From positions 64,001 through 128,000 of the IMG/VR virus record IMGVR_UViG_3300021256_000064: a stretch of 64,000 nucleotides of DNA; one strand, 5' to 3'. Below the pieces are notes generated by a model. It was given only the letters and a program-made list of their open reading frames with translations. It did not search any database and had not been told where the DNA came from. The stretch's first letter is position 1, and each line of letters begins with the position of its first letter. The position numbers were made by a program, and so were the translations under genes. Positions 3,513 to 35,858 of this stretch are shown one piece after another. Origin of the DNA: a virus.

Positions 3513-3806
3513 CAAATGTGAGCTTGTTTTAGGCGGACTTCCTCACTGTTCAACCGCACGCCGGATTTGCATTGGGTCAGGCGCGTGACCTTGACAAGAT
3601 AGTAAGCTCTTTTTCTAAATTTCCTTTTAATAGGTAGGCAACTTTATCAAAAAAATATGAGCCACAAAAAACTTTAGTTCTTTATTGGTTTTTCAGTGAA
3701 TTTCAATTTTTTTAAAATTATATCATCTGATTTTTTTGAATTGCTGTTTTACTATCTTTATTATATATATATTATATCATATATTTTTTAAAAAATCAAT
3801 AAAAAA

Positions 3807-3986
3807 TTAATCTACATAAAAAGTTCTTTTTTCACCACAGCATAAACATGTTACTGTTTGACATTCTACAATTCCACTTGGAAGAAAATTAAAACTATAA
3901 TGTTCGCCTGCTGTTGCATAACTTTTACATTTTTCATTATGATTTTCAACCCATTTATCTAATTTCTCATCTGTTTTAAATACCAT
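3807..3986 (-). CDS. small Cys-rich (CxxC...CxxC) zinc-binding protein
   Basis: RC ATG preceded by AAGGAG; overlaps ORF-track 3959..4168. Confidence 0.45.
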   Translation of the reverse strand: MVFKTDEKLDKWVENHNEKCKSYATAGEHYSFNFLPSGIVECQTVTCLCCGEKRTFYVD

Positions 3987-4049
3987 TTGTATTTCTCCTT
4001 TTTTATTAAAAATACATTGATTTTTTTAATCAAGCCCGCCCAAGAAATT

Positions 4050-4901
4050 TTAGAAAAATTCCTTGAGCAGAGCAGCCCTCCGCGGATTACGGAGTTTCTT
4101 AAGAGCGGTAGCTTCAATCTGACGAACTCGTTCTCTACTAATACCAAGTTCTTTACCAATTTCATCAAGCGTTTTTGCTCTATTCATACCAATACCAAAT
4201 CTATTTTTGATAATAAGCTGCTCGCGGTCAGTCAAAGTATTAAGGATATTCTGAACTGCTTCTTTTCTTTCGTCATCCTCAATATTCATAAAAGAATCTG
4301 CAACAGATTCATCTTCAATAAAAGAACCAACAGTAGTATCCTCGTCATCTCCAATAACTACATCAAGAGAAGAAGTATCTTTCATCCATGAATATGCTTC
4401 TTTAACTTTTTTAATATCAATTCCAAGAGCTTCCGCAATATCTGCTTCTTTCGGCTCTCTGTTATGAGACTGCTGGAAATCTCTTTCAGCTTTTTTAATT
4501 TTACTAATCAATTCAATAACATGAATTGGAATACGAATATTTCTAGTCTGGTCCATAACCGCACGAGAAATAGACTGTTTAATCCAATAGGTTGCATAAG
4601 TAGAAAATCTAAAACCTTTATCAACCTCATACTTTTCTGTTGCTTTAATCAGACCAAAATTACCTTCCTGAATAAGGTCAGAAAGAGTAAGCCCTCGTCC
4701 CATATACTTCTTAGCAATAGAAACAACAAGACGGAGATTATGGTTAATCAAAGCATTCTTTGCTCCCTGATTTCCTTTTGCGGCAGCCTCAGCATATCTT
4801 ACTTCATCCTCTTTTGAAAGAAGATTATACTGGCTAATTTCATTGAGATAAACTTTAATAGAATTAACAGTAGTTGCTTCAGACGCTTTAATTTCTGCCA
4901 T
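4050..4901 (-). CDS. phage-encoded sigma-70 family RNA polymerase sigma factor (regions 2-4 recognisable); no in-frame TAG
   Basis: 283 aa; YATYWIKQSI (region 2.x), TLDEIGKELGISRERVRQIEATALKKLR (region 4.2 HTH); AAGGAG RBS. Confidence 0.85.
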   Translation of the reverse strand: MAEIKASEATTVNSIKVYLNEISQYNLLSKEDEVRYAEAAAKGNQGAKNALINHNLRLVVSIAKKYMGRGLTLSDLIQEGNFGLIKATEKYEVDKGFRFSTYATYWIKQSISRAVMDQTRNIRIPIHVIELISKIKKAERDFQQSHNREPKEADIAEALGIDIKKVKEAYSWMKDTSSLDVVIGDDEDTTVGSFIEDESVADSFMNIEDDERKEAVQNILNTLTDREQLIIKNRFGIGMNRAKTLDEIGKELGISRERVRQIEATALKKLRNPRRAALLKEFF

Positions 4902-4986
4902 AATAAACTCCTTTATGTTTTTTCTATCTTTACTGTATATATATTATATAATAATTTTTTTAAAAAATCAAAAAAGATTTTTTGAA

Positions 4987-5057
4987 TAGGGCATAATGGA
5001 GTCGAACCAGTATCACTGGTTTATAAGACCAGCGCTCTCACCACTGAGCTAATGCCC
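4987..5057 (-). tRNA. tRNA with anticodon UAU (Ile, AUA reader)
   Basis: acceptor GGGGCAT/ATGCCCT, D-arm GCTC..GAGC, anticodon stem CTGGT/ACCAG, loop CTTATAA. Confidence 0.55.
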
Positions 5058-5060
5058 CAT

Positions 5061-5133
5061 ATATCTCATAAGGGAATCGAACCCCTATCTTAACATTCGT
5101 AGTGTTATATTCTGTCCATTAAACTAATGAGAT
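5061..5133 (-). tRNA. tRNA-Arg(ACG)
   Basis: acceptor ATCTCAT/ATGAGAT, anticodon stem TAACA/TGTTA, loop CTACGAA, T-arm AGGGG-TTCGATT-CCCTT. Confidence 0.65.
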
Positions 5134-5134
5134 A

Positions 5135-5434
5135 TTAAGCGCAGTAATAATTTATTTGCCGCGCCACTTTATTTACATAAGCACAAAATGCTTTTGCTTC
5201 ACTTTCTTTTAAAAAATGAAAAGCTAAATAGTCAGAATTTATATAATAATGCAAACCTTTTGCATTAAATTTCTTTAATAAAAGATTAACATAATCTTCA
5301 ACAGAAAGATTAAGGATACGCATTGGAGTGTACCATTTACCTGACCGCCCACCTAAATTTTTGACATCATTAACATGCCATTTTCCTGCAATCTCCCAAT
5401 AGGTCATTTGATAAAGATGAACTCCTGCTCCCAT
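5135..5434 (-). CDS. hypothetical protein (99 aa)
   Basis: ORF track. Confidence 0.5.
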   Translation of the reverse strand: MGAGVHLYQMTYWEIAGKWHVNDVKNLGGRSGKWYTPMRILNLSVEDYVNLLLKKFNAKGLHYYINSDYLAFHFLKESEAKAFCAYVNKVARQINYYCA

Positions 5435-5444
5435 AATTATCTCC

Positions 5445-5763: not shown

Positions 5764-5970
5764 TTATTTTATTACCTCTTCTACATCTATTGTGTTAATA
5801 TCACCATAGTTTTTAAAAATCCAATTACTAGCATCATAAAGATTTTTCATTTTAATAAAAAGAATAGTTTCATTAGTAACAATATTAAAAATTCTAAAAA
5901 CTTTCATATTTAATATTTTTTCCTTTTCATATTGTATATATATTATATCAAAAAATATTAAAAATGTCAA
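5764..5970 (-). CDS. hypothetical protein (68 aa)
   Basis: ORF track; promoter module at 5925-5975. Confidence 0.4.
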   Translation of the reverse strand: MTFLIFFDIIYIQYEKEKILNMKVFRIFNIVTNETILFIKMKNLYDASNWIFKNYGDINTIDVEEVIK

Positions 5971-6005
5971 CTCTTCTTTTTAACTTGTTTTACGATAATT
6001 TTATT

Positions 6006-6742
6006 CTATTTAAAAGTATCTGCTAAATCAATAAAACGATCACATATTTTACATCCATTAGGATCATACATACAACGTTTTTTACATCCTGTACGAACTG
6101 CTCCAAAAGTACTCATAATACATCTGTTATCAAGATTTTCTTTAAATGAAGGAATAACTTCCTTAAGTTCTCCAAACCATTTCTCTTGTTTATAGATTTT
6201 AAATAGAACTTGTTGTCTTTCTTTGTCTGAAATTAATTCAAAAACATCTACAAAATTAGAATAAATATAAATATCTTCTGGTCTAATAAAAAACTTTTTT
6301 ATATCAGGTATTTCAAAGAAACTTGACTGACATATATTTGGATAAACTCTAACTTTGATATTATTTTCATGTAATAATTTACTTATTGAATTAATAAAAA
6401 ACCCTAGTTCTTCACAAATATACATATCTGTTGGGTGATGTTGAATTAGACCATACAACTAATCAAAAGTTGTAACGGGGTTTGTGAAAAAGTATGGAAG
6501 CTAATAAGATTTAGCCCTTAATAAAGAATCTTTATTAAAAAAGTCAAATATGATTTTAAAATTAGAATATTTATCATATAATGCTTTTAATAATCTTGCA
6601 TCTATTTCTTCAAAAGATTCAGAAACATCTATAATAATAGTCTTATCTTGATACTATGTTAAGAAATCTTCTAATGTGCGGTCTGCAGGATTATATACTA
6701 TTTTTAACTAATCCGCATCTTTTAAATATTTTTCATATGGGT
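6006..6742 (-). CDS. hypothetical protein with C-terminal Cys cluster; contains 4 in-frame TAG codons (early-region gene using the recoded codon)
   Basis: ATG at RC 6742 with AAGGAG RBS; reading frame continuous into ORF 6006..6458 through TAGs only. Confidence 0.55.
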
Positions 6743-6819
6743 AATACTGTAAGCAAAACATAAAATCTCCTTATAATAAAAAAGGGGAGATTAATTAATC
6801 TCCCCCTCATTTTATTTTA

Positions 6820-7224
6820 TTACTCTTCAACAGCTGTTGAAATTCTACGATAAGCCATTCTCTTCTTACCGTCCACTCTAACTGACTCCTTCTCAATAAG
6901 TCCTGCATTAACAAGCTTACCAAGTCTAGCAGTTACCTTAGCACGAGTAACTTCCTCGTCATCAAAAGCAACTGTAATCTCATCTACAGTAACAAGCTTA
7001 TCTGTAATAAGTTCATAGATTGCGTCTGTAAGAGCATCAGATTCAGCCTTTTTCTTCTCTGCGCGGGCTGCCGCAGCTGCCTTACGTTTATCAAGAGCTT
7101 CAATCTGCTTATCAATAAACTCTACATACTCTGTCTGCTTCTCTGCATCAGTTACTGTTGTAAGAACAAGTTCTCTAAGTTCCTCAAAATACATAGCCTT
7201 TGTTTTCTTTGTTGCGTTTTCCAT
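6820..7224 (-). CDS. winged-helix-like protein, distant member of the 117-aa paralog family
   Basis: 134 aa; shares Lys/Ala-rich linker and C-terminal R-x-T-x-R-L-x-x-L-V-x-x-G motif. Confidence 0.5.
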   Translation of the reverse strand: MENATKKTKAMYFEELRELVLTTVTDAEKQTEYVEFIDKQIEALDKRKAAAAARAEKKKAESDALTDAIYELITDKLVTVDEITVAFDDEEVTRAKVTARLGKLVNAGLIEKESVRVDGKKRMAYRRISTAVEE

Positions 7225-7324
7225 AGTGTTTTCTCCTTAATAAAATTGAATGTTTATTTTTTCTCTTTATCTTATGTATCTATTATACCAAAAATTTTTA
7301 AAAGTTGCAAATATTTTTTATTAT

Positions 7325-7537
7325 TTATTTTAGACATGCATTGATATATCTAATCTCTCGTTCTGTTAAATCTTTAATTAAAAGCCCATGCTTTTTAAAG
7401 ACTAATTCAATTTCCCAAAAGCTAAAAGTAGGCTTAGGGTCCTCTTTTATTTCCTGTATCGCTGCATTGATTTTACCAGCTCTTGTTGGAAGAAGTCCTT
7501 CAGCTTCCGCATAAAACATCATTTCCGCAAACTTCAT
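7325..7537 (-). CDS. hypothetical protein (70 aa)
   Basis: ORF track. Confidence 0.45.
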   Translation of the reverse strand: MKFAEMMFYAEAEGLLPTRAGKINAAIQEIKEDPKPTFSFWEIELVFKKHGLLIKDLTEREIRYINACLK

Positions 7538-7543
7538 ATTTAT

Positions 7544-7699
7544 TCATCCTCCTCCGGCTCATCTTCGTCCTCTTTTGGGTTTAGTATTGGACAATTTTCA
7601 CAATCGCATTCTCCAAATATTGTACACCAAGATTCAGGCTGAGTATCAAAATTTCCCATTAATGTTCTCATATAAATGCAACCTGTCCAATACATTAAA
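7544..7699 (-). CDS. small Cys-rich acidic protein (about 51 aa)
   Basis: GGAGG RBS + ATG on minus strand; not in ORF track (under 60 aa). Confidence 0.35.
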
Positions 7700-7765
7700 T
7701 TTTTCCTCCTCTTTTTATATTATTATTATATCAAAAATTATTATAAAAAACAAATATTTTATTTT

Positions 7766-8293
7766 TTATTCAATCCAATAAACGATTCTAATCATACTAT
7801 AATTATCTTTCCAAGAACCACAACCTTCCATAACCTCAAAAAAAGTATCAACACGATTTTTAAGAGACATAAGAGGAGTTGGTTTCATAATTTTAGTTAC
7901 TGGTTCATTATTATAATAAGCTTCATCCATAGTTTCATAATCAGGAACCTCTGGATGTTCAAGACAATAAATATACATATCAGCATAAGTAAACCAACGA
8001 ACAATAGGAGTATAAGTATGTTTTTCATCAATTTCATAACAATGCTCGTTATAAACGGTTTTTATATCTGTTGAAACGTCTTTAGGTAAACCATAATGAA
8101 TCCCTTTCATACTTGGAAAATCTCCTGCATTATTTTCCACAATAGAAAAAAGGTCATGACAACCATTATAAGGAAAAAGTGGTGCGGGAACTCGCTTAGT
8201 GTGATTGTAATTCCAAACTAGCGGATGATATATTTCATATTTACCAGTATGCTCATCGATTTTTTCTACAAAAAAGAAAGGACTTCTACTCAT
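7766..8293 (-). CDS. hypothetical protein (175 aa)
   Basis: ORF track. Confidence 0.55.
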   Translation of the reverse strand: MSRSPFFFVEKIDEHTGKYEIYHPLVWNYNHTKRVPAPLFPYNGCHDLFSIVENNAGDFPSMKGIHYGLPKDVSTDIKTVYNEHCYEIDEKHTYTPIVRWFTYADMYIYCLEHPEVPDYETMDEAYYNNEPVTKIMKPTPLMSLKNRVDTFFEVMEGCGSWKDNYSMIRIVYWIE

Positions 8294-8305
8294 AATATCA
8301 CTCCT

Positions 8306-8512
8306 TTAATAATCTTTTATTTGCTGTTTCATATCTTTGCTTCTAATTTTTTCCATCTTTTGTTTCTTTAAATTTTGGCGGGCAGGGGCACTTCCAAGCT
8401 TAGGTTTATATTTACCGCAAGTCTGACAAGCTTTTCTAAAAGTTCCTGCTTTTCCTTTTAAACAGCTCCCTTCATACTCATAAAAAATACAAGCAATTTC
8501 TCTATCTTTCAT
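8306..8512 (-). CDS. small basic zinc-ribbon protein (68 aa)
   Basis: ORF track; CxxC pairs. Confidence 0.45.
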   Translation of the reverse strand: MKDREIACIFYEYEGSCLKGKAGTFRKACQTCGKYKPKLGSAPARQNLKKQKMEKIRSKDMKQQIKDY

Positions 8513-8523
8513 TGTTTTCTCCT

Positions 8524-9201
8524 TTAATCATCTAAGTAATTTGAAAAATCAAAGATGACAGGTGTCTTATTTAATCTATATCCATAATTTCCAGAATGAG
8601 AATCTTCTAAAATATCTAAATCAACTTCATCACAATATTTTAGAAATTCTCTAACTTTATCTTCTCCATAGACATCTAAACACTTAGCGACCCAATCAAC
8701 TGTTAAATCACCTGTTACTCTTTTTTTACTAAATTGTCTTGCTATCTTTTGAGATTTCTTAGAAGGTTTTTTAAAAGATTCTAACCAACTATCATCTTCA
8801 GATATAGCTTTTTCTTGAATAAAAATTCTAATTCCATCAATTGTTTTATAATATATTGTCTTAGCTACAAAACAATCCAAATTTAAAGACTTTAATTTTT
8901 TATATTTCTCATATTCCGCCAAACAATAATCGCTATTATCTTCAACACTTGGTGCCCAATAAAAACTACTCCACTGATTATCTAAATACTGCCCCTTGAA
9001 AGGGATTTTAATAACAACATTTTTTAAACTGGGAGATATAATTACCATTTTAGAAACGCCATACTCCAATTTTGCTTGAGAATCAATTTCACTGATTTTC
9101 TTACGCATTTCTTTAATTTGTTCTGATTTATAACCGAAGTCCTTTGGGAAAGGAGTAATTGCATTTAAAAATTTATTTACTAGATTATAATCAAAAGTCA
9201 T
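8524..9201 (-). CDS. hypothetical protein (225 aa)
   Basis: ORF track; own promoter module 9205-9260. Confidence 0.55.
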   Translation of the reverse strand: MTFDYNLVNKFLNAITPFPKDFGYKSEQIKEMRKKISEIDSQAKLEYGVSKMVIISPSLKNVVIKIPFKGQYLDNQWSSFYWAPSVEDNSDYCLAEYEKYKKLKSLNLDCFVAKTIYYKTIDGIRIFIQEKAISEDDSWLESFKKPSKKSQKIARQFSKKRVTGDLTVDWVAKCLDVYGEDKVREFLKYCDEVDLDILEDSHSGNYGYRLNKTPVIFDFSNYLDD

Positions 9202-9285
9202 AATTAAACCGCCTTTTTATATTATATATATATTATAATATATATTTATAAAAAAATCAATGAGGGATTTTTATCCCTCATTGAT

Positions 9286-9519
9286 TTACCATTCAATGAC
9301 GTAATCGTGCTGTGACTTATGATGAATTTTATATCCCAACTTTTTTAAATGTCTGATATTTGTTTTCTCAATACCGCCATGCCATACAAGTCCAGTATAT
9401 CCTTGCTGAGACGAAAAATCAATATACTGAAGAATAAATTTTAATTCTGTTCTATTGATTTTAGATTCATACTTATTGACGTTGTTTCTTGCGGCACTTG
9501 CGTTCCAATTAAAAAGCAT
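9286..9519 (-). CDS. hypothetical protein (77 aa)
   Basis: ORF track. Confidence 0.45.
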   Translation of the reverse strand: MLFNWNASAARNNVNKYESKINRTELKFILQYIDFSSQQGYTGLVWHGGIEKTNIRHLKKLGYKIHHKSQHDYVIEW

Positions 9520-9522
9520 TTT

Positions 9523-10440
9523 TTATTCCTCCTCAATCTTTTTTACAATACATCTTGTTAAATAAGTATTTTTAATTCCCATATACTCGTCAAATTTTTT
9601 GATTGTACCCGTAAGGTCAACTGTTTCACCAACAGCAACATTAAGACCTTTTGAAGTCATCCATACAAATACATAATTTTCAGATGTAAATGTATAAACA
9701 TTTGTATATCCATAAATACCTTCAAAGCCGCGGATGCTGGCAATTTTTGCTGTAATATTACGAAGTCTTTCTTTCTCTACGCCAGGATAAAATTCTGAAG
9801 TAGACGGTCCCTTAAGCTCAGCAATCTTACGAGCTACAATATTCTTTGCATCTTCTTTAAAACTTGCCCACTTTGATTCAGGATTATAATCAAAAACCTC
9901 ATCAAAAGCAAGTTCGCAGAGATTATAACCCTCCGGAAGTTCTACTTCTTTTGAAAAGAACCATTTAAAAGTGGGGTCAAATTTTCCACCAAGCTTCTTC
10001 AGCTCATCTTTGATTGCGTAAGTGTCATCACCATAAACAAGATAGATTTTCTCATTTTCGCCGAAGCCGCGTTTAAGAGCTACTTCATGCTTATATTCAT
10101 CAGCATGGTCAATAGCATCCTGGATTCTTGCGGCAGCCGCAGCTTCACGTTTCTCTGCAGCTCTTGCTTTTGCCTTCTGAAGAGCATTGTATTCTTTCTC
10201 TGTATAGGCGCGAACTGTTTTGGTCACAACCTTCGCACCGCCGCACTTATAGCAGACACCGCCATCAACAGGAATAGGAACATACTCGCCATTATGAACA
10301 TGAGAAACAATAAAGCCAAGTCCTGAACAGCGGTCACACGGCTCTTTTACCTTAATAACCATCTTACCTTTTTCATTCTCGAACGGCTCACCAATAACTT
10401 CCATATTCTTATAAGAGTCAGCTACAAAGAATTTTTCCAT
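9523..10440 (-). CDS. hypothetical protein with N-terminal zinc ribbon (305 aa)
   Basis: ORF track; CDRCSG...CYKCGG. Confidence 0.55.
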   Translation of the reverse strand: MEKFFVADSYKNMEVIGEPFENEKGKMVIKVKEPCDRCSGLGFIVSHVHNGEYVPIPVDGGVCYKCGGAKVVTKTVRAYTEKEYNALQKAKARAAEKREAAAAARIQDAIDHADEYKHEVALKRGFGENEKIYLVYGDDTYAIKDELKKLGGKFDPTFKWFFSKEVELPEGYNLCELAFDEVFDYNPESKWASFKEDAKNIVARKIAELKGPSTSEFYPGVEKERLRNITAKIASIRGFEGIYGYTNVYTFTSENYVFVWMTSKGLNVAVGETVDLTGTIKKFDEYMGIKNTYLTRCIVKKIEEE

Positions 10441-10627
10441 GCTTTTCTTTTCCTTTCCTTTCTTTTTTATTACTGCTCTTCAACTAAATTAATCTCACAA
10501 TCCCATCCCTTATCTCTTAAATCTTCTTCTAAAAGATAACGAACAGTAGATTCTGTAGCTTCATCGTCTGCTAAAAAAATATGTGCTTTTAATATTACAG
10601 TAAATTCTTTTGTCTTTTCCATGCTCA

Positions 10628-10840
10628 TCACTCCTTATTCATAAGACGCATTTTTACTTGATTGATATTAATTCTTGTATTATCAATATTTCGCTGTAAT
10701 TCTTTTAATTTCATTATAGTATCTAGATCATGATAATAAGATTTATCTTTATTCTTTCGATATACATGACAACGAAAATATTCATTATATTCATTTGTAA
10801 GATTAATTAATCTTATTTCAAGTAATTGTAAATTTTTCAT
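10628..10840 (-). CDS. hypothetical protein (70 aa)
   Basis: ORF track. Confidence 0.4.
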   Translation of the reverse strand: MKNLQLLEIRLINLTNEYNEYFRCHVYRKNKDKSYYHDLDTIMKLKELQRNIDNTRININQVKMRLMNKE

Positions 10841-11117
10841 TGTCTAAGCCTTCTTTCTTTATCTTGTACATATATTATAACAAAATTTTTAAAAAAAATA
10901 AAGCTGCGATTTTGCAGCTTTACATCTTAATAAATAATGGGGCACATATAAAAATAGAAATTATTAGTATTATAAAAATCTTCATTATTGTGGATAAATT
11001 AAGCATAATTGTGTAATATACAAAAGAAGTATTAGTATGCCAACTATTGTATAAGCATATTCAGTTTCTATTGCACTTTCTCCTATTAACCATCCGCATA
11101 ATGCCCCTATACATATA

Positions 11118-11321
11118 TTAAATATTAACAATTTTCCCTCCTTTATCAATCCAGTGACCTTCATGCAGTTCGGGCTGAATGGTCGGCTGTTTAATCACTA
11201 ATCCAGCAATATAGCCAAGCCAGAAAGAGCCGACCTTATCATCTTGCTTGATAACTGTTTTCGTGTCCTCTTTGATTTCATTAAGAAGGACATCTGCATC
11301 AATCAATCTCATCTCTTTCAC
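11118..11321 (-). CDS. hypothetical protein (67 aa)
   Basis: ORF track. Confidence 0.4.
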   Translation of the reverse strand: MKEMRLIDADVLLNEIKEDTKTVIKQDDKVGSFWLGYIAGLVIKQPTIQPELHEGHWIDKGGKIVNI

Positions 11322-11871: not shown

Positions 11872-11873
11872 TC

Positions 11874-12597: not shown

Positions 12598-12686
12598 TTA
12601 TTAAGTTCTCCAAATATAAATAACAAATTTTCCTTTTATTATAAATTATAAAATAATTTTTTGGTAAAAACAACTGAAAGTTGTTT

Positions 12687-27405: not shown

Positions 27406-27438
27406 TTTTTATTTCCTCTCTTTTCTTTATCTTATGTA

Positions 27439-28163: not shown

Positions 28164-28257
28164 TTGACAAAAGTTGGAAGGTATGCTATAATGGTTCGGC
28201 GGGCAGGCCCCGGCTGCCCGCGCGCCACTCAAAAAAGAGGGCTTAAGCCCCCTTTCT
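28164..28257 (+). ncRNA. plus-strand unit 6 (hairpin GCGGGCAG-GCCCCGG-CTGCCCGC)
   Basis: TTGACA 28164-69, TATAAT 28187-92, terminator AGAGGGCTTAAGCCCCCTTTCT. Confidence 0.5.
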
Positions 28258-28434
28258 GGCTCTCTCACGTCTCTTCTTTTCAGCTTTCAGTGCGTGCTCC
28301 CGCATCTGAAGCTTCACATTTTCTGGAGTTTCGTCTACAGGAAGCAGGTGAACCGCCTTAATACCCTCAGCCTTAGCAGTTGCAAAATTCTCAGTTACCT
28401 TACCGCCCTTTGTCTCGTATCTAACTGTTCTCAT
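28243..28434 (-). CDS. hypothetical basic protein (63 aa)
   Basis: ORF track. Confidence 0.45.
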   Translation of the reverse strand: MRTVRYETKGGKVTENFATAKAEGIKAVHLLPVDETPENVKLQMREHALKAEKKRRERARKGA

Positions 28435-28503
28435 TCTAATTTCTCCTTTTCTTTTGTTATCTTATATATAAATTATACTATTTTTCTTTTAAGTTGTCAA
28501 CAA

Positions 28504-28692
28504 TTATTTTTCATTTTCAAAAGGAACGTTTAAAGCTACAACCATAGCCAGTGTTACGATTTCATCAGAAACTGCTTTGTTTTCCGCCAGATTGCAAAAC
28601 CAAATTGTAGTTTCGTCCTCTAATCCTCTAAAAGTTGCGACCTTATTTTCCATTTCCATTCTAGACATAATTAATCCTCCATTTTGATCCAT
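28504..28692 (-). CDS. hypothetical protein (62 aa)
   Basis: ORF track. Confidence 0.4.
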   Translation of the reverse strand: MDQNGGLIMSRMEMENKVATFRGLEDETTIWFCNLAENKAVSDEIVTLAMVVALNVPFENEK

Positions 28693-28734
28693 ATATGAGG
28701 GGTTCGGTTCGTTTACCGAACCCCTAACCAGTTA

Positions 28735-28920
28735 TCAGATTCTAGCAAGAATCTTTGACATGATTTCATTGTGTGCGTTAAGAGCATCCATATACAGGCT
28801 ATCAGCTCTGCACCATGCTTCGAAGTTGTTTGCCCTTGTAGCTCTGACCAGTTCGGCATATGCACGATTAAGTTCTGTTCTAAGTTCCTGTTCCTTTGCT
28901 CTCATTTCTGTAAGTGTCAT
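28735..28920 (-). CDS. hypothetical protein (61 aa)
   Basis: ORF track; similar to 32146..32328 (MT..EMRAKE..L...AY.L..A). Confidence 0.45.
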   Translation of the reverse strand: MTLTEMRAKEQELRTELNRAYAELVRATRANNFEAWCRADSLYMDALNAHNEIMSKILARI

Positions 28921-29178
28921 TTTTGTTTTCCTCTCTTTCTTTATCTTATGTACTTATTATACATGATGTTTTTTATTTTGTCAAGGGGTTTTTTATTTTT
29001 TTTCAAGTTTCCAGATTGGATTTTTTGTTGTATCCCGTGTGCCGTCGGCATTGAAGAACCAAATTGCGCGATAATTATCCATTGAAATAATTACCATATT
29101 GCCAAACTCTTTTATTTGATAGCCACGGCTTCTATGAATACGAATGAATTTGTCTTTTGTCATTTTTTTGTTCTCCTT

Positions 29179-29361
29179 TCAAAAACCAATGTAGTGGTCA
29201 AACTGTCCGTCAATCCGACATTCAATGTACCAATCTTCTTCAGAACACATATCTTCTTCTAAAAGACAGCCAAAAGCGTGAGCATTTTCGTAAGAAGTAA
29301 ATGTATCTTCTTTAAAATGATGTCCCATACAATCAATCACCCACACCACATATTCAAACAT
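29179..29361 (-). CDS. acidic Cys/His small protein (60 aa)
   Basis: ORF track. Confidence 0.4.
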   Translation of the reverse strand: MFEYVVWVIDCMGHHFKEDTFTSYENAHAFGCLLEEDMCSEEDWYIECRIDGQFDHYIGF

Positions 29362-29449
29362 TTTTTTGTTCTCCTCTCTTGTTTCTGATATAATGATACT
29401 ACTTTTTTAGTCACTTGTCAAAGGATTTTTTTAATTTTTATGCGGTTTA

Positions 29450-29732
29450 GCATTTTGCACAAAAAGGCTTTAAAAAGTTTGTGCAATTTGCTATTTTTAT
29501 TTTTAGCTATTGACAAAAAATTTTTTGTGCAAACTGCACAATAACAGAGTGCTTCACTTGTGTAGTTTGCACAACTCCAGAAAAGTCAAGTAGAAATGTT
29601 GCACAAAAATGGGGCAGTTTTGGGCGTTCTTTTTGTGCAATTTGACGAGAAGCACATCTGCACCGATCTGTCAATGGGCAAATTGCACAAATTTGGGAAA
29701 AAATTGCGCTTAATCTTTGTGTAATTTGCCTA
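29450..29732. promoter_or_regulatory. dense array (8 or more) of TTGCACAAA / TTTGTGCAA operator half-sites upstream of unit 7 promoter
   Basis: seen directly. Confidence 0.6.
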
Positions 29733-29815
29733 TTGACAAAACCGCGAGGGTATGGTATAATGGTTGAACGGGCAAAGCCCGTGCGCCCACGGCGCGCCGA
29801 GCAAGAGCCGGAGCT
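29733..29815 (+). ncRNA. plus-strand unit 7 (hairpins ACGGGC-AAA-GCCCGT and GCGCC-CAC-GGCGC)
   Basis: TTGACA 29733-38, TGgTATAAT 29756-61. Confidence 0.45.
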
Positions 29816-30009
29816 TAGGAGAAGAATCTATTCCAAGCTTCCCACTCCTCAGTCCAGAGGTCCTCGATGTCTGTCCAATCGAGGTTCTCATCTCCGCTCA
29901 GCATAGCCGAACGAGCAAAGGCTGTAGCTTCCATAGCCTTGCGGTACTGCTCTACCTTGCGGTTTGTGAGGGTTGCTGTGATGCCGTCTGCGATAATGAT
30001 TGTTGTCAT
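29815..30009 (-). CDS. acidic small protein (64 aa)
   Basis: ORF track. Confidence 0.45.
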   Translation of the reverse strand: MTTIIIADGITATLTNRKVEQYRKAMEATAFARSAMLSGDENLDWTDIEDLWTEEWEAWNRFFS

Positions 30010-30094
30010 TTTTTTATCTCCTCTCTCTTGATGATTTTATTATATCAGATGGGATTGTTTTTGTCAACTACTTTTTTTTATTTTTTTTAGCGGA

Positions 30095-30180
30095 GCGAGT
30101 GGGAGTTGAACCCAAGAGAACTACTTGCTAGCATTTTCGTTCCCAGACGTCACCGTCTACCTACTTCCGTTCGGCTTACC
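30095..30180 (-). ncRNA. promoter-driven tRNA-like RNA (T-loop GGGTTCAACTCCC) occupying the slot where a module normally carries a CDS
   Basis: promoter 30185-30235 has ATCATCGGAAGG in place of RBS; transcript lacks ORF. Confidence 0.35.
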
Positions 30181-30418
30181 CTTCCGATGATTTTATTATA
30201 TCAAAGACTTTTTAGTTTGTCAACTACTTTTTTTATTTTTTGGTGAGGGATGGGAACTTGTCCGCTCACCGTGCCTGTATTCATCGCGCCCTAATGTCCC
30301 CAGGCTCTGGCGCATTTCTTTGGTTTGTTGGTTTTTACGGCGGGTCTCTCATTTCTGTGTTCCTCTCTTTTGATGATTTTATTATATCAGGTGGGGTTGA
30401 TTTTGTCAACCCCTTTTT

Positions 30419-30565
30419 TCAATTTTTTTCTTCTATTGTCATGTACTCTTCATAACCGAGGTTATCCCAAGCAGTATCTACATATTCGCAAGCCTCTTCA
30501 TAAGAATCGAATACTTCATCTACACTCCAGTTTCCACAGCAATCCATGAACCATACTTCGTACAT
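30419..30565 (-). CDS. acidic Cys-containing small protein (about 48 aa)
   Basis: internal ATG of ORF 30419..30622. Confidence 0.35.
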   Translation of the reverse strand: MYEVWFMDCCGNWSVDEVFDSYEEACEYVDTAWDNLGYEEYMTIEEKN

Positions 30566-30734
30566 TTTTGTTCTCCTCTCTCTTGATGATTCTATTATAT
30601 CAGATAGGTTGAAGTTTGTCAACCTTTTATTTTTATTTTTTAGAAGTTTTTGATATGAGTGGGAGATTTTCGACTTAGTTTAAAACTTACTCGCCTCGTC
30701 TGGGTGAACTTGCTTTAAAACACCCTTCGAAGTA

Positions 30735-30790
30735 AAGGAAGGAATCGAACCTTGTGTTGCTGTCAGCCTTTCTGACTGCCTTTACCTTAT
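30735..30790 (-). ncRNA. mini tRNA-like RNA at +1 of a promoter module: acceptor-like, D-arm-like and T-arm (AAGG-TTCGATT-CCTT) but no anticodon arm
   Basis: RC GGTAAAGGCAGTCAGAAAGGCTGACAGCAACACAAGGTTCGATTCCTTCCTTTACT. Confidence 0.3.
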
Positions 30791-31494
30791 GTTTTTATTA
30801 TACCAGAGGGGTTGAGGTTTGTCAACCCCTCTTTTTCATTTTTTTAATTTTCTTTGAGAAGCTCTTCAGCGATTTCCTCGGCTTCCGCCTCGGTGATTTC
30901 GTTGTATGCTACCATTCTGACCAGTTCTTCGAACATCATGTACTTCATTTTGCGTTCCTCGCTTTCTTTATCTTATGTACTTATTATATCAGATGTTTTG
31001 TAGTTTGTCAACTACTTTTTTTATTTTTTTGAAGCTTTCTACATTTCAGATGAACAACCGGCGCTTGGCTCGTCCGCCCACCCTATTCTGTTTTGTTGCT
31101 TCCTTTCTTTTGATGATTTAATTATATCATGGGGCTTGGCTTTTGTCAAGCCCCTTTTTTAATTTTTTTAAAAGATTTTTACGACTTTTCTGTCATCGTT
31201 ATCGTTATCTGTTGTGATAACCGCTGTTGTAGCATCTACATCTACAATACCATCCCAACCGCCATCCATAGCTGTCTGAACCGGAATGTTAAGTGCGTTA
31301 TTTGCTACTGCCCAGTTATAAAGATCCATGATTGTCATTTTTTTTACTTCCTTTCGTTTGTGTTTTTGTTTTCCTTTGATGATATAAGTATACCATCCTA
31401 GGTTTCTGTTGTCAATAGTTTTTTAAAAATCATATCAAAAATATTGCACAAAAATAGGAATTTATTTTTGTACATTTTGACGAATAAATTAGTC

Positions 31495-31606
31495 TTGACA
31501 AACTGCGTTGTAGTGTGGTATAATTTTCACGGCCTCCAGCCGTTCGTTTGTGGTTGCTAATCTTATTAGTTAATAAAAAGATAAGAGCGTTTCCGCTCTT
31601 ATCTTA
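31495..31606 (+). ncRNA. plus-strand unit 8 (hairpin ACGGC-CTCCA-GCCGT; terminator AGATAAGAGCG-TTTC-CGCTCTTATCT)
   Basis: TTGACA 31495-500, TGgTATAAT 31519-24. Confidence 0.5.
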
Positions 31607-31904
31607 CCTCGTTATATTTATTTCTTGTGTGTTCTTTTGCCAGTGCTAAAAGGTCTGTCGGGATTGTTTCATTTTCGTTGTAGTATCTTCTAATCTGTCC
31701 TGGTCTAGCGATTAATCTAGTTACCATTTTCTTTGTTCTTTCATTGTAGATTGTAATGATTGCTGTTGAGCTAATCACGTGGATTTCAGCACCGTTGCGA
31801 TGTCCTCTGTCTACTCTAACTTCCTTTACTGGTGTTCCTTCACCGATCTGCTGAATAAGTTCTTCTCTTGCTTTTCTATCTTTTGTGTAATGCTTGCTTG
31901 TCAT
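31599..31904 (-). CDS. hypothetical protein (101 aa)
   Basis: ORF track. Confidence 0.5.
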   Translation of the reverse strand: MTSKHYTKDRKAREELIQQIGEGTPVKEVRVDRGHRNGAEIHVISSTAIITIYNERTKKMVTRLIARPGQIRRYYNENETIPTDLLALAKEHTRNKYNEVR

Positions 31905-32044
31905 GTCTTTGTTCTCCTTTGCTTTTGTTTTCTTTTGATGATACTATTATAACGCTTACTTTATTAGTTGTCAATAGGTTTTCAACAAAAATATTGCACA
32001 ATTTTAGGTGATTTATTTTGTTACTTTTGACGAATAACTTAGTC

Positions 32045-32140
32045 TTGACAAACTGCATCGTTGTGTGGTATGCTGTTTCGGTGTCCGAACGACTGTTCAC
32101 GTTAGCAAATAAGTAAAAGCCTAACTTTCGTTAGGCTTTT
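32045..32140 (+). ncRNA. plus-strand unit 9 (promoter near-identical to unit 8, -10 TATGCT; terminator AAAAGCCTAAC-TTTCG-TTAGGCTTTT)
   Basis: seen directly. Confidence 0.45.
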
Positions 32141-32145
32141 ATTCT

Positions 32146-32328
32146 TTATACTCTATCGAGCAGTTCGCTTGTGGCGTCCAGCCATTCACGAGAAGCTTTC
32201 ATGTAGTTATCGTTTGCTAACATCCATGTTTCTGCATCAGCTGTTTTTGCTTCGATAAGCTGATTAAATGCGTAATCCATGTTTGCCTTAAGTTCCTTGC
32301 ATCTCATTTCCATAGCCTTTACTGTCAT
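32146..32328 (-). CDS. hypothetical protein (60 aa)
   Basis: ORF track. Confidence 0.45.
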   Translation of the reverse strand: MTVKAMEMRCKELKANMDYAFNQLIEAKTADAETWMLANDNYMKASREWLDATSELLDRV

Positions 32329-32439
32329 TGTTTTGTTCTCCTTTTCTTTTGTTTGAGGTTTCTTTCCTCATCTCTTGAATACATTATACTGCTAAGTAGT
32401 TCACTTGTCAATACTTTTTTATAAAAAATATTATCTTTT

Positions 32440-32940
32440 TATTGGTTAGTAGTGCCTACCTACTACCATGCTGTACTACATACATGTATTAACATATTAA
32501 TGTGTTAATGTATTAATGTTGTATTGTGTTAATGTGTTAATGTTGTATCACTTCACATCGTTACACTTCAACGTGGTGAAGTGATGCAGCTCAGCACTTC
32601 AACGTGGTGAAGCGTCACAGTGATACCACTTTAACGCGCTGAAGTGGCAATGCTTTAACGCGGTGAAGTGATAGCGCTTTAACGTACTAAAGTTTCATAC
32701 TTTAACGCGGTGAAGTGGCACCGTGGTGACGCGCGAAAAACAGCCATAAGTAAGACTTTAGCGAGGTGAAGTGTTAACGCGCTGACGCTTTAACGCGGTG
32801 AAGTGGTGACGCTGTGAAGCGCTGAAATCGCCCCTAAAATGGGACTTTAGCGCGGTGAAGTGTGACGCTTTAACGCGCTAAAATTTAACGCTTTAGCGTG
32901 GTGAAGTGCAAAAACGGCTCTCAACCAACCCGTTTCGAGC
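32440..32940. repeat. iteron array: about 11 degenerate copies of ACTTYAACGCGGTGAAGTG (partly palindromic ACTTCA-N6-TGAAGT) at irregular 20-45 bp spacing, preceded by GTTAATGT mini-repeats
   Basis: seen directly; noncoding 950-bp gap between gene blocks. Confidence 0.75.
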
Positions 32941-33060
32941 CGCGCGCAATACGAAGATTATTATAATTACTAATCAAGAATTTTCCATAAATTAAGAATT
33001 GATTTTTTGAAAATATTATTTTTATTATTTTATTTTTTATTATTTTATTTTTATGGCAGG
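32941..33060. repeat. AT-rich tract with TATTTTATT repeats (DNA-unwinding-element-like) adjoining the iterons
   Basis: seen directly. Confidence 0.6.
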
Positions 33061-33297
33061 TATGAGTGTTTTATGTATTTTTTGGGGCGTATCAATCTAC
33101 AGACGTACTCGTCAGATTTGTTCAGCTACAGACACTTCCTTAATAATTATCTGGGGGGGTATATTTCGGGAGAAAAATTTTTTAAAAATGTGAAAAGGGT
33201 ATTGTCTCCACACAACTCTCTCCAAATTAATTTTCAAAATTAAAAAACGATTTAAATCCCACTTCCCTCTCCAAACCAAAAATGGAGGGATGATTTA

Positions 33298-33654
33298 TCA
33301 TCCCTCCATTTCCTTTGCCTCATAAATATTTGGATACCAACTAAAAAATGGTTTCCTACTTCCGCCAACTTTTATCCTATAAGTTTTTCCAACTTCAATT
33401 TTCCCATATAAATCAGAAGAATTAAATCTTCCATAAAGCCAACTATCAGTAATCTCATAAGTGGTATCAGTAGAATAAACTAAATATTTATCATCTTTAA
33501 CCATTTTATCAGTAACTTCAATAGTTTCATATCTTATATTTGTAGCTTTATCAATAGGTCTCCAAAAACTAACTACAATAAGAAACCCTATAATAAGGAT
33601 ATAAAAAATAAATGCAATAACTTTTACATTAGAACCTTCATCATAATAACCCAT
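33298..33654 (-). CDS. membrane protein (118 aa, N-terminal TM helix)
   Basis: ORF track. Confidence 0.5.
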   Translation of the reverse strand: MGYYDEGSNVKVIAFIFYILIIGFLIVVSFWRPIDKATNIRYETIEVTDKMVKDDKYLVYSTDTTYEITDSWLYGRFNSSDLYGKIEVGKTYRIKVGGSRKPFFSWYPNIYEAKEMEG

Positions 33655-33657
33655 CTC

Positions 33658-33840
33658 TTAATCCTTCACATTTTCCCAATTAAGCGGGGTTCCACAGTGC
33701 CCGCAAGTTTCTCTTTCCCAATTTGCGGAATCTCTATAAAAAGCAGCTCCGCACGTCGGACACCAAACAACATTCTTTTCATCTTCTCTAATTACAACAT
33801 TCTTTTCATTCATTTCCTTCTTACCTCTCCTTTTAATCAA
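33658..33840 (-). CDS. zinc-ribbon small protein (60 aa)
   Basis: ORF track; CPTCG...CGHCG. Confidence 0.45.
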   Translation of the reverse strand: MIKRRGKKEMNEKNVVIREDEKNVVWCPTCGAAFYRDSANWERETCGHCGTPLNWENVKD

Positions 33841-33981
33841 AACATCTTGCCGCCAAATTTACAAGCAACATAATCCAACACAAAACATAATTAACAATAG
33901 AAATCTCTCCACCATTAGCGGCGTTCGCAATATTAATTACTCCAATAAAAATCCAAAGTATCAATAACAACATATCCATTT

Positions 33982-34314
33982 TTATTCATCCTTATCCGCC
34001 ACATAATCAGCGATTCTTTCAATAGTATCTTCTACCTTATCCAAATTTTCTGCGGTGACCTGTGATGCAATAATCATTTTATAACAAGTACTCTGTGAAG
34101 GAATAGCTACTGCAAAAATCATAAAAATAATTCCAATAATTGTAACTATTTTTGTTTTCTTATCCCACCAAAAAGATCTTATTTCTCCAGCCTTCCATAA
34201 ACCCCATATACATGCTACATAAACAAAAGCAGTTATTGCAAAAATAATAGCAACAGCCTTTATTCCCTCACATATTTCAGCAAAATAAAAAATCCACGGA
34301 TTTACAATAAACAT
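33982..34314 (-). CDS. multi-TM membrane protein (110 aa)
   Basis: ORF track. Confidence 0.5.
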   Translation of the reverse strand: MFIVNPWIFYFAEICEGIKAVAIIFAITAFVYVACIWGLWKAGEIRSFWWDKKTKIVTIIGIIFMIFAVAIPSQSTCYKMIIASQVTAENLDKVEDTIERIADYVADKDE

Positions 34315-34316
34315 TC

Positions 34317-34673
34317 TTATACTCCTTTTCTTTCAGGTAGATTTAAAATTTCATCAATTGGTGCGGATCTCCATATAACTCTCCACCAATTATTTTCATC
34401 ACGATACCCACTATAACAATGTGATGCTTGAGGAGAGCCAGAAAGCGGGCTCCAATCAATTAAACAATCACTGCAGTCCCCATCTTTCTGCTCATCATAT
34501 TCACACAAAAAACAATGAGCCATTACATCTTTAAAATTATGTTCTGCGCACCATTTTTCTTTAAATTTTCTTCTATCAAAACCATCAGGATTATTACCTA
34601 ATTCCGCCCGCATATCACTCCACATCCGCCGATGAAGCTCTAGCGCTCTTTCTTTTGTTAATTTCTCTTTCAT
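34317..34673 (-). CDS. hypothetical Cys/His/Trp-rich protein (118 aa)
   Basis: ORF track. Confidence 0.5.
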   Translation of the reverse strand: MKEKLTKERALELHRRMWSDMRAELGNNPDGFDRRKFKEKWCAEHNFKDVMAHCFLCEYDEQKDGDCSDCLIDWSPLSGSPQASHCYSGYRDENNWWRVIWRSAPIDEILNLPERKGV

Positions 34674-35062
34674 TATACAAGTCCTTTGTTTGCGGCTTCA
34701 ATCTCAGGATTTTCTTTTGAATATCCCCTAGGCGGAGTTGGCTTTTTTAGCATACCATAAGTTTCAAGTGTTACAAGTCTATCACGCATACTAAAAGTAT
34801 AGTCATAGATTTCATTATTAATATCTACCTGACGCTGACGCTCAGCTCTCCATTCTGCAAGTTTCTTCCCATAAGATTCATCCCAGGTATCCTGCGGGCA
34901 GCATTTCGCAATTCCTTTATAAATGCGAACATCTTCAATATCATCATATTTATCATCACCAAGTCCATATTTTTCAATTCTAGTGATAAAATCATCAACT
35001 GTAGTAATGATACAAACAACTGTGCGCTTCTTTTCATTTACAATAAATTCTGTAGTTACCAT
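34673..35062 (-). CDS. hypothetical protein (129 aa)
   Basis: ORF track. Confidence 0.5.
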   Translation of the reverse strand: MVTTEFIVNEKKRTVVCIITTVDDFITRIEKYGLGDDKYDDIEDVRIYKGIAKCCPQDTWDESYGKKLAEWRAERQRQVDINNEIYDYTFSMRDRLVTLETYGMLKKPTPPRGYSKENPEIEAANKGLV

Positions 35063-35343
35063 GCGGTTTTGCAGGTATATGGCCGTCTCATACCTGCCGC
35101 CTCCTTTTCTCTTTAGTCTTTAATATTTTATTTATTTATCATTTACAAGTATATTATATTATAAATTTTTTAATTTTTCAAAATAGTAAAAAATATATCA
35201 AACTCCGCAAATTCTAAATCTTGCTCTTTACCTTCTTCTGTTGTTATAAAAAATTTTCCTTTACGCTCTTGATAATTGTAAACTTTATTTTTTACAAAGC
35301 TTCCTTTATTAAGAGTTAAATTATAATTTGCTTTAACTTTCAT

Positions 35344-35772
35344 TTATCTTAACCCCATATATTCAATAATTTGTTTATTTTTTTCAATAGCATAATTCCT
35401 TGTTATGAATGTTCCTCCACCGCCAACACCGTCCCATACACACAAGAGAGTATCTGCATTATCCACCATAAAACGGTCTCTAACAAAATATGCCATTTTT
35501 GAATATTTATCAGAAATAAAAGCAATATGATTTCCTTCCATAATCCACTTTTCTGTTGGTGAATAATACTTTTTGGGAAATGGATAGCAGCAAACTATAG
35601 GTATATCCAACTCCTTTGCGGCTGTTGCTATAATTTGATCAGTCCCTTGTGCCATGCCGTCAAAAATCAATGATGGCTGAAGGCGAGTAAGCTGCTCCAC
35701 CGCCCACTTTTTTACTAGTTTCTCTTGTCCTTTTAATCGTCCTGGTCGATGTCCTGTTACAGCTAAAATCAT
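35344..35772 (-). CDS. SLOG / DUF1273 (YpsA-like) family protein
   Basis: 142 aa; N-terminal VTGHRPxRL and GGG(G)T motifs. Confidence 0.5.
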   Translation of the reverse strand: MILAVTGHRPGRLKGQEKLVKKWAVEQLTRLQPSLIFDGMAQGTDQIIATAAKELDIPIVCCYPFPKKYYSPTEKWIMEGNHIAFISDKYSKMAYFVRDRFMVDNADTLLCVWDGVGGGGTFITRNYAIEKNKQIIEYMGLR

Positions 35773-35858
35773 TTTTTATTTTCCTCTTTCATTTTTACTA
35801 TACAATTATTATACAAAATTTTTTTAAAAAAATCAATTAAGGTATGCTTAAAACTAGA

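Follow-up and report, generated by a model that had tools for sequence, protein, structure and literature searches.

We show that TAG, a stop codon of the standard genetic code, divides the genes of a phage into two classes, and that where it stands within genes it exchanges with glutamate codons in related genomes. The DNA analysed, referred to here as the window, is a stretch of 64,000 nucleotides (nt) covering positions 64,001 to 128,000 of IMG/VR record IMGVR_UViG_3300021256_000064, and it appears to hold about half the genome of a tailed phage, 125-140 kb in size, whose host would be a low-GC gut Firmicute, probably from the class Bacilli. All 11 of its tRNA genes lie on the minus strand, and one of them has the anticodon CUA (ARAGORN), which would allow UAG to be read as a sense codon. 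We think it quite likely that three elements jointly explain how TAG is used here: two gene classes that differ in when they can be translated in full, an effect of protein abundance, and the decoding of UAG as glutamate. The coordinates of the features discussed are collected in Table 1.

TAG use falls into two states

Genes were called with TAG treated as neutral, by an in-house caller based on codon usage, Shine-Dalgarno strength and length. The minus-strand block at 1.5-36 kb, called early here on account of its promoters and gene content, comprises 67 genes and 6,530 codons with five in-frame TAGs, every one of them in a single gene at 5967-6761. The plus-strand block at 35918-63534, called late, comprises 23 genes and 8,933 codons with 135 TAGs, spread over 20 of the 23 genes (Fisher p = 2e-25 for the late excess over the early block). 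Long frames at 35.9-63.5 kb, including those of the terminase, portal, fibre and tail proteins, are open only with TAG as sense, and PHROG matches extend across the TAG positions of late genes. All called genes of the window stop at TAA or TGA.

Out-of-frame TAG trinucleotides are as common in early genes (126 and 102) as in late genes, and the early depletion therefore acts on the reading frame. It extends to termination, since none of the 67 minus-strand genes uses TAG as its stop. In three standard-code relatives TAG terminates 18 of 112 long open reading frames (ORFs; 16%), a rate at which a count of zero in 67 has a probability of about 1e-5; therefore, the early genes are built to read alike under both codes. 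Expressed as a fraction of Glu-like codons (TAG together with GAA and GAG), TAG accounts for 0 of 587 across 66 early genes, 0.24 in gene 5967-6761, 0.16 in a plus-strand island within the early block and 0.22 in the late block. TAG use is a matter of two states, with no intermediate class, and the same two-class pattern recurs in relatives at 50-83% protein identity. The initial annotation of this DNA, made from its letters and ORFs, had observed that most early genes lack TAG, which holds for 66 of the 67 minus-strand genes, and the density of TAG is indeed far from uniform between the blocks; its description of the recoding as temporally graded does not fit the data, given that the TAG fraction forms two states and not a gradient.

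The two blocks differ in other aspects of codon choice. The G+C content at third codon positions (GC3) is 0.28 in the early and 0.16 in the late block, the ratio of CAG to CAA is 95:55 and 50:260, respectively, and GAG makes up 28% of GAA plus GAG codons in early genes and 15% in late genes. In late genes, TAG seems to substitute for the glutamate codon that ends in G.

The exceptions of the early region are conserved as such. Gene 5967-6761 had been recognized as a minus-strand gene requiring TAG read-through, with limits of 6006-6742; its true extent gives a protein of 264 amino acids (aa) with five TAGs. The product is a core protein with more than 200 homologues, an invariant C-terminal cysteine cluster and a predicted TIM-barrel-like fold, which is of a generic kind and whose best PDB matches are too weak (E = 4e-4, template modeling score ~0.4) to point to a function; a tblastn search with it gave no match. 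Its orthologue contains at least one TAG (1-7) in 13 of 14 relatives, at positions that vary by lineage, and the neighbours on the same strand are TAG-free. An intrinsic terminator (GGGGAGATTAATTAATCTCCCC then TTTTTT) lies directly upstream of its ribosome-binding site, with no promoter between the two. The plus-strand island, in which two genes had been found to need read-through (13342-13575 and 14440-15078), holds four such genes, with nine TAGs distributed over 13342-13575 (1), 13550-13744 (2), 13913-14287 (4) and 14440-15078 (2); opposite-strand islands with TAG genes are present in relatives too. The dUTPase gene does contain one TAG, as reported, but it lies beyond the late block and outside the early region. 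Because they are conserved in relatives, the exceptions of the early region are a stable class and not noise, and they fit the idea of a delayed class. The initial annotation had suggested that they may mark a middle class; their TAG density is late-like and not intermediate, and by sequence they may be either middle or late genes.

Genes of mobile endonucleases follow the same division. An HNH homing-endonuclease gene (40222-40578, plus strand) between the terminase and portal genes has three TAGs, and the GIY-YIG endonuclease genes that one relative (L008) carries close to its tRNA array have four and seven, amid TAG-free neighbours. Therefore, mobile endonuclease genes belong to the TAG-using class.

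Promoters and a translational gate

Between 16.5 and 36 kb there are 41 perfect (12/12) TTGACA-N17/18-TATAAT sites, 33 on the minus and eight on the plus strand, against a chance expectation of about none. The minus-strand sites form an array with one site before almost every small early gene, and seven more perfect promoters lie within the array in the opposite orientation. A second conserved promoter type, TTGATTTTTTAAAAA...TATAATATATA, precedes the sigma factor gene, tRNAs and larger genes at 0-17 kb and 35 kb, and promoters of this sigma-70-like type are interspersed through the tRNA array. These consensus promoters mark the TAG-free block as one that the host polymerase would transcribe. 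The sigma factor matches PF00140, PF04542, PF04539 and PF04545, all above the Pfam cut-offs, and its gene is TAG-free in relatives also; both it and the suppressor tRNA gene are located in the TAG-free part of the window. The identities first assigned to the sigma factor, SprT and the HAD-type phosphatase (an NT5C nucleotidase) are confirmed, and none of these genes has a TAG. The gene first named a DnaQ exonuclease (20813-21520) is TAG-free as well, but its identity comes down to a sub-threshold Rv2179c-like match (E = 9e-4).

We propose the following scheme. UAG would be a sense codon read by the phage tRNA with anticodon CUA. The TAG-free class, made up of the sigma factor, the tRNA array and some 66 small genes of the minus strand, would yield the same products under either code, so that its expression could begin in the first minute of infection. 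The TAG-using class, made up of the plus-strand structural block, the island, gene 5967-6761 and the dUTPase, with TAG at about 22% of Glu-like codons, would yield full-length protein only once the suppressor competes with host release factor 1. Such a gate would weigh most for TAG-containing units at sigma-70-type promoters (13342, 35918 and 62983), which the host polymerase could transcribe early; if it does use these promoters, translation would be the sole barrier to their early expression. These units provide the strongest argument for the gate that can be drawn from sequence, and they make it plausible. The positions of TAG within genes point the same way: the first TAG stands at a median of codon 23, compared with 40 expected for random glutamate sites (p = 0.011), and this 5' bias has the same direction in 22 of 24 loci from relatives.

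In this respect, the first gene of the plus-strand block, 35918-37048, deserves attention. It belongs to PHROG 5767 (E = 2e-47), and its counterparts in cultured relatives are annotated as 'sigma factor' or 'LuxR family'; searches of Pfam, of PDB by sequence and by Foldseek (with a poor AlphaFold model, predicted local distance difference test score pLDDT 63) gave no match. On the basis of the PHROG family and of others' annotation, we label it a putative late transcription factor. The plus-strand promoter before it is kept in 14 of 18 relatives, where the orthologues carry 1-14 TAGs.

The initial annotation had suggested a translational timer, and the sharp split between TAG-free and TAG-containing genes, together with the host-type promoters, speaks for it; timing as the sole cause is not supported, however, given that probable high-copy late genes are TAG-poor. 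It had also proposed relating TAG to promoter class. TAG-free genes do lie behind sigma-70 promoters, but so do the TAG-containing units at 35918, the island and 62983.

Within the late block, TAG usage appears to follow protein abundance. TAG accounts for 3 of 52 Glu-like codons in a probable scaffold gene (42268-43611), 1 of 27 in the probable major capsid gene and 0 of 24 in the probable major tail protein gene, each significantly below the late mean of 0.22, and it is most frequent in the terminase (17) and gene 59966-60745 (13). Since TAG is rare in these probable high-copy late proteins, the cost of inefficient suppression, and not timing, fits the pattern there, and in the proposed scheme this cost would act in addition to the gate. 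One could go further and suppose that yield explains everything, with high-yield genes avoiding TAG whenever they are expressed because suppression is inefficient against release factor 1. Besides the three TAG-poor genes and the concentration of TAG in low-copy proteins, the consensus promoters and strong Shine-Dalgarno sites of the early genes agree with such a view. Nevertheless, early avoidance is absolute whereas abundant late proteins can contain a TAG here and there, a need for maximal output in every one of the approximately 66 accessory genes is unlikely, and the 5' bias of TAG suits a gate better than a yield cost. We therefore consider it unlikely that yield replaces timing; the two are compatible and probably act alongside each other.

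TAG appears to be decoded as glutamate

Several comparisons bear on the meaning of TAG. Aligned with standard-code homologues, the 17 TAG positions of the terminase face E 22 times, D six times and Q five times, and in the same alignment the true glutamine codons of the terminase face Q 22 times. Opposite 115 TAG sites of the window, about 100 IMG/VR relatives have GAA in 39% of cases, GAG in 10%, TAG in 9%, GAT in 8%, CAA in 5% and CAG in 1%, so that glutamate codons are about eight times commoner than glutamine codons (49% vs 6%). By majority residue, 65 sites are E, nine are Q, eight are K and eight are D. With substitution frequencies drawn from the same alignments of relatives, the site-level log-likelihoods of Glu, Asp and Gln are -134, -237 and -250, respectively, and against three cultured standard-code phages those of E and Q are -240 and -271, placing Glu ahead by 31 nats.

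Individual sites agree with these totals. TAG occupies invariant-glutamate positions of the terminase, namely GGK-E-QAA, the Walker B motif GL(I/V)(D/E)-E and FNR-E-Y, at which relatives have GAA, GAG or TAG only. At the Walker B site, where the window reads GGLME-TAG and homologues read GLIDE, GLIEE or GLVEE, the relatives have GAG 15 times, GAA 11 times, TAG three times and never a glutamine codon. At the YRG-E site of the dUTPase, which holds TAG in the window, the relatives have GAA 13 times, GAG six times and TAG once. As mutants of E256 in T4 gp17 indicate, the Walker B glutamate does not tolerate replacement by glutamine, and glutamine at this position would be expected to abolish ATPase activity.

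The initial annotation had assumed code 15, in which TAG means glutamine, as in crAss-like phages and in phAss-1. All published phage reassignments of TAG that we found are to glutamine, Q is the majority residue in relatives at 9 of 98 TAG sites, and the comparison of two tail-fibre paralogues in the window is ambiguous (TAG partners six glutamate and five glutamine codons). Yet TAG in the window aligns and exchanges with GAA and GAG, the suppressor lacks the acceptor features of tRNA-Gln described below, and the method does return glutamine where glutamine is due: an identical likelihood test on phAss-1 gave -58 for Q and -68 for E, with Gln ahead by 10 nats, as published, and a subset of relatives is typed as glutamine too. 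Together with the expected loss of ATPase activity, these results make a glutamine reading very improbable, and TAG appears to be decoded as glutamate in the window phage.

The suppressor tRNA resembles tRNA-Glu

Elements known to identify tRNA-Glu in Escherichia coli and Thermus thermophilus are an augmented D-helix with U11-A24, a non-Watson-Crick 13-22 pair and the absence of residue 47, together with a strong 1-72 pair. Among 11 distinct tRNA(CUA) genes of the clade, all 11 have U11-A24, a 13-22 mismatch and a D-loop of 8-13 nt, all 11 begin with a G-C, C-G or G.U pair and have A, U or C at position 73, and nine have G2.U71. In two relatives (L007 and L139) the suppressor D-stem is identical to that of the same genome's tRNA-Glu(UUC), and in L129-131 the whole D-arm and a 4-nt variable loop match the tRNA-Glu pattern. 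Phage tRNA-Gln(UUG) genes, on the other hand, have U1 or A1, G2-C71, G73 and C11-G24; clade suppressors never have U1, A1 or G73, whereas the suppressors of phAss-1 and of a phAss-like relative (L143) have U1 and G73. Overall pairwise identity of the suppressor to other tRNAs was uninformative as to isotype. In these features the window suppressor resembles tRNA-Glu and lacks the acceptor end of tRNA-Gln.

In bacteria without glutaminyl-tRNA synthetase, Gln-tRNA is made by a non-discriminating glutamyl-tRNA synthetase (GluRS) followed by GatCAB, which takes the U1-A72 pair of tRNA-Gln and rejects tRNA-Glu with G1-C72. A host GluRS would charge the tRNA-Glu-like suppressor, and without G73 and with a strong first pair GatCAB would not convert the product to glutamine; given a Glu-like body and such a pair, the suppressor would keep its glutamate. 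Glu-type and Gln-type suppressors differ at precisely the acceptor-end positions that the indirect pathway uses to separate tRNA-Gln from tRNA-Glu.

Other tRNA genes are worth noting. A Glu-type relative (IMGVR_UViG_3300021399_000007; L136, 14099-14173) has a tRNA-like gene whose anticodon, UUA, would decode TAA, which serves as the principal stop in these genomes. In phAss-1 (OQ749652; L047, 47443-47533), one tRNA(CUA) gene reaches 91 nt and has the long variable arm of class II tRNAs such as those for Ser, Leu and Tyr, and this phage may carry suppressors of two different identities. In the window, a lone tRNA-Lys(UUU) (24018-24092, minus strand) lies amid the small early genes, distant from the main array.

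Two probable meanings of TAG within one phage family

We typed each related genome by the residues facing its own TAGs. Most genomes, including the window, are Glu-type, with 50-68% E and 3-8% Q, and seven (L074, L075, L119, L120 and L125-L127) are Gln-type, with 27-40% Q and 9-12% E; the latter, to which IMGVR_UViG_3300001528_000534 and IMGVR_UViG_3300029906_000003 belong, therefore act as an internal control for the typing. Relatives with a 51-64% identical tail protein (L010-L073 and the Gln-type loci) divide into Gln-facing and Glu-facing genomes, which suggests that TAG has come to mean different residues in different branches of a single family. No suppressor tRNA was found in the late-gene loci of the Gln-type relatives, a pattern search having matched other contigs only, and phAss-1 is the only genome with both Gln typing and a suppressor tRNA.

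On balance, we favor a broader reading in which a clade of gut-Bacilli phages of about 125-140 kb reads UAG as glutamate by means of a tRNA-Glu-derived suppressor that is charged by GluRS and spared by GatCAB, a code not known from any virus or prokaryote, in which sister lineages read it as glutamine through suppressors whose acceptor end is Gln-like, and in which the codon gates translation either way. The meaning of UAG would have switched within one family through changes at the tRNA acceptor end, and in Glu-type and Gln-type phages alike UAG would gate host-transcribable genes, including the putative late transcription factor.

Discussion

Several points weigh against the combination of gate, abundance effect and glutamate decoding that we propose. 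The timing is deduced from promoter consensus and gene content, promoters were assigned by consensus matching, which does not prove that they function, and the AT-rich intergenic regions yielded no late-promoter motif that we could define confidently. The TAG-poor late genes demonstrate that TAG can be avoided without a timing explanation, and the smallest ORFs depend on a simple in-house caller. The relatives share ancestry, so that counts among them are not phylogenetically independent, although TAG positions turn over fast, with only 9-28% shared. As to the tRNA, a 4-nt variable loop, typical of tRNA-Glu, is present in only 4 of the 11 clade suppressors, that of the window being 5 nt, and charging by GluRS would require the enzyme to accept a CUA anticodon. 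Finally, our conclusions cover a 64-kb window, with about 60 kb of the genome lying beyond it, in which genes for replication and lysis and further tRNA genes would be expected.

A purely historical origin of the two classes, in which fast-turnover early accessory genes came recently from standard-code genomes and had no time to gain TAG, would account for the different GC3 and CAG:CAA preferences of the blocks and for paralogous units of about 2.3 kb in the early block, but we regard it as the least credible of the alternatives and already largely refuted, because a standard-code source predicts TAG at some 16% of stops where there is none, early orthologues remain TAG-free at 55-70% identity while gene 5967-6761 gains and loses TAGs at shifting positions, and out-of-frame TAG is common in early genes.

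Borges et al. (bioRxiv 10.1101/2021.08.26.457843; Nat Microbiol 2022) described phages in which early genes, including the machinery of the code change, are compatible with the standard code and late genes are recoded, and reported only TAG-to-Gln and TGA-to-Trp changes in phages whose code differs from that of the host. Since they proposed the same scheme, the interpretation in the initial annotation restates a published model, and the early/late partition of TAG in the window is one more well-resolved example of it, with the addition of a link to promoter architecture. Shared features are code-compatible early genes, recoded structural genes, a suppressor tRNA, a presumed standard-code Firmicutes host and a translational switch. 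The window phage differs in that TAG behaves as glutamate, in that consensus host-type promoters, arranged as an array, set the early class apart as well, and in that some TAG-containing units share the early promoter type.

The closest known phages are siphoviruses of Firmicutes with genomes of about 120-140 kb, namely phAss-1, of the proposed Phassvirus (Babkin et al. 2023, PMC10607447), Enterococcus phages H1 and EF1, and Geobacillus virus E3. They fall in the same broad family as the window phage, with large terminases 44-45% identical to its own, genomes of similar size and a PHROG 5767 gene upstream of the terminase, and phAss-1 likewise reads TAG as sense and carries a tRNA(CUA) gene. 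In phAss-1, however, TAG sites align with Gln and the suppressor has a Gln-like acceptor end (U1, G73), and the cultured relatives employ the standard code. At the nucleotide level the relationship of the window phage is a distant one: compared with 50,697 phage records, its late block matched a single one, a 12-kb unannotated record at 76% identity. Metagenome contigs of 85 and 124.6 kb encode its sigma-factor protein, an IMG/VR contig of 139.8 kb belongs to a near-identical relative, and the nearest copies of its tail protein in genome bins are mostly in metagenome-assembled genomes labelled 'Bacilli bacterium'. Strong Shine-Dalgarno sites and TTGACA/TATAAT promoters likewise indicate a Firmicutes host.

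In crAss-like phages, for which metaproteomics has validated code 15 (TAG to Gln; Peters et al. 2022, PMC9523058), amber is likewise a sense codon of late genes and a tRNA(CUA) is phage-encoded. These phages differ in having Bacteroidota hosts, other promoters, weak use of Shine-Dalgarno sites, glutamine as the inserted residue and an unrelated lineage. The nuclear code of peritrich ciliates (NCBI table 30) likewise converts stop codons to glutamate, but it is eukaryotic, affects TAA and TAG genome-wide and involves no virus imposing a code on a standard-code host. The early regions of SPO1, T5 and T4 contain many strong host-type promoters and small genes. The early block of the window resembles them in its dense consensus sigma-70 promoters and its small uncharacterised genes opposite the structural strand; it differs in avoiding one codon completely, and homology to their early genes was not found.

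We found no report of a phage TAG-to-Glu reassignment in open-access papers and bioRxiv. If our reading is right, to our knowledge this would be the first TAG-to-Glu code outside ciliates. Prodigal-gv, Pharokka-gv, Mgcod and NCBI table 15 render phage TAG as Gln, which for this clade would then misassign about 1.5% of late-protein residues, including catalytic glutamates, and distort homology searches and structure prediction. The phage family would also provide a natural matched pair of Glu- and Gln-inserting amber suppressors, making it testable which host enzyme charges them. For genetic-code engineering, natural amber suppressors able to insert glutamate in Gram-positive hosts could be of use.

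Other features of the window

Table 1. Features of the 64,000-nt window, in window coordinates.
Feature	Position	Strand	Remarks
tRNA genes (10)	309..5134	-	Leu, Thr, Met, Sup-CUA, Glu, Asp, Leu, Asn, Ile, Arg; ARAGORN, Rfam
Suppressor tRNA, anticodon CUA	1180..1253	-	C1-G72, G2.U71, A73, U11-A24, G13.A22 mismatch, 9-nt D-loop
Sigma-70-like promoter	1766..1794	-	TTGATT-17-TATAAT with TG extension; nearest upstream of suppressor tRNA
Sigma-70 family sigma factor	4050..4901	-	Regions 1.2, 2, 3, 4 (Pfam); no TAG
Conserved 264-aa protein	5967..6761	-	5 TAGs (codons 18, 36, 87, 101, 252); sole TAG gene of minus-strand block
Intrinsic terminator	6778..6805	-	Upstream of 5967-6761
Early block of ~60 mostly small genes	6820..35772	-	Strong Shine-Dalgarno sites; no in-frame TAG; TAA/TGA stops
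SprT	12687-13193	-	TAG-free
Plus-strand island in early block	13282..15078	+	Promoter TGGACA-17-TATAAT (13282-13310), then five genes, four with TAG
Promoter array (33 perfect)	17261..32411	-	TTGACA-N17/18-TATAAT
Paralogous units (3, diverged)	19707-19946, 22027-22266, 24424-24663		~2.3-kb spacing; 67-73% identity; repeat families D16, D17, D19
Short plus-strand units (8)	20247-20375, 21733-21830, 22661-22760, 25261-25375, 27037-27140, 28164-28262, 29733-29835, 31495-31612	+	Within minus-strand early block; candidate small RNAs
DEDD-type nuclease candidate	20813-21520	-	Rv2179c-like match, below threshold
Hairpin-embedded -35 boxes (examples)	30393-30413, 30805-30832, 31131-31154, 27842-27869, 23579-23607	-	Minus-strand promoters
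NT5C/HAD nucleotidase	26466-27056	-	TAG-free
D18 inverted repeat (examples)	28109-28159, 29594-29644, 29678-29728, 26982-27032		Candidate operator
Divergent promoter pair, early/late boundary	35808..35887	both	Minus TTGATT-17-TATAAT 35836-35808; plus perfect TTGACA-17-TATAAT 35859-35887
First plus-block gene, 376 aa	35918..37048	+	PHROG 5767; 9 TAGs; behind perfect sigma-70 promoter
Late structural/packaging block	37092..63534	+	Large terminase, HNH endonuclease, portal, head, fibre, tail; 126 TAGs
TAG at Walker B catalytic glutamate	38969..38971	+	Large terminase
Probable major capsid protein	44237..45298	+	PHROG 4088; by position and size; 1 TAG vs 26 GAA/GAG; terminator after
Virion structural, probably major tail protein	60759..61766	+	0 TAG vs 24 GAA/GAG; terminator after
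Perfect promoter	62925..62953	+	TTGACA-17-TATAAT; before TAG-containing gene 62983-63534
dUTPase	63581..64000	-	5' end past window; 1 TAG at 63752-63754, motif DSDYRG-TAG-YIV

No lysis genes were found within the window, and the probable major capsid protein has no Pfam match. A further recoding of TGA or TAA as sense was considered for the ORF-poor region at 17-33 kb and rejected, as small genes with strong Shine-Dalgarno sites fill it. Between 15079 and 15751 (673 nt) neither strand has a convincing ORF or an Rfam match, and GC skew in this region is strongly positive (0.41 for 14-16 kb). An Rfam scan at gathering thresholds and at E <= 0.1 found tRNAs only. Each of the three paralogous units spans one small minus-strand gene (~115 aa) plus its promoter.

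The -35 box of many minus-strand promoters lies within a GC-rich hairpin followed by a T-run on the plus strand; therefore, one element could both end plus-strand transcripts and serve as a minus-strand promoter.

The eight short plus-strand units in the early block resemble a small-RNA family. In each, a perfect sigma-70 promoter whose -10 is extended (TGTGGTATAATGG) is followed by a very GC-rich 5' hairpin (about 35 nt) with a stem that varies between copies yet stays paired, then by an A-run and an intrinsic terminator. The units (~60-90 nt) contain no ORF and have no Rfam match, and RNAalifold on a plain alignment of the eight returned no consensus structure. About 40-90 nt upstream of their promoters, adjoining a -35 box, lies an inverted repeat, TTGCACAAA-N20-30-TTTGTGCAA (family D18), which looks like a candidate operator for a DNA-binding regulator.

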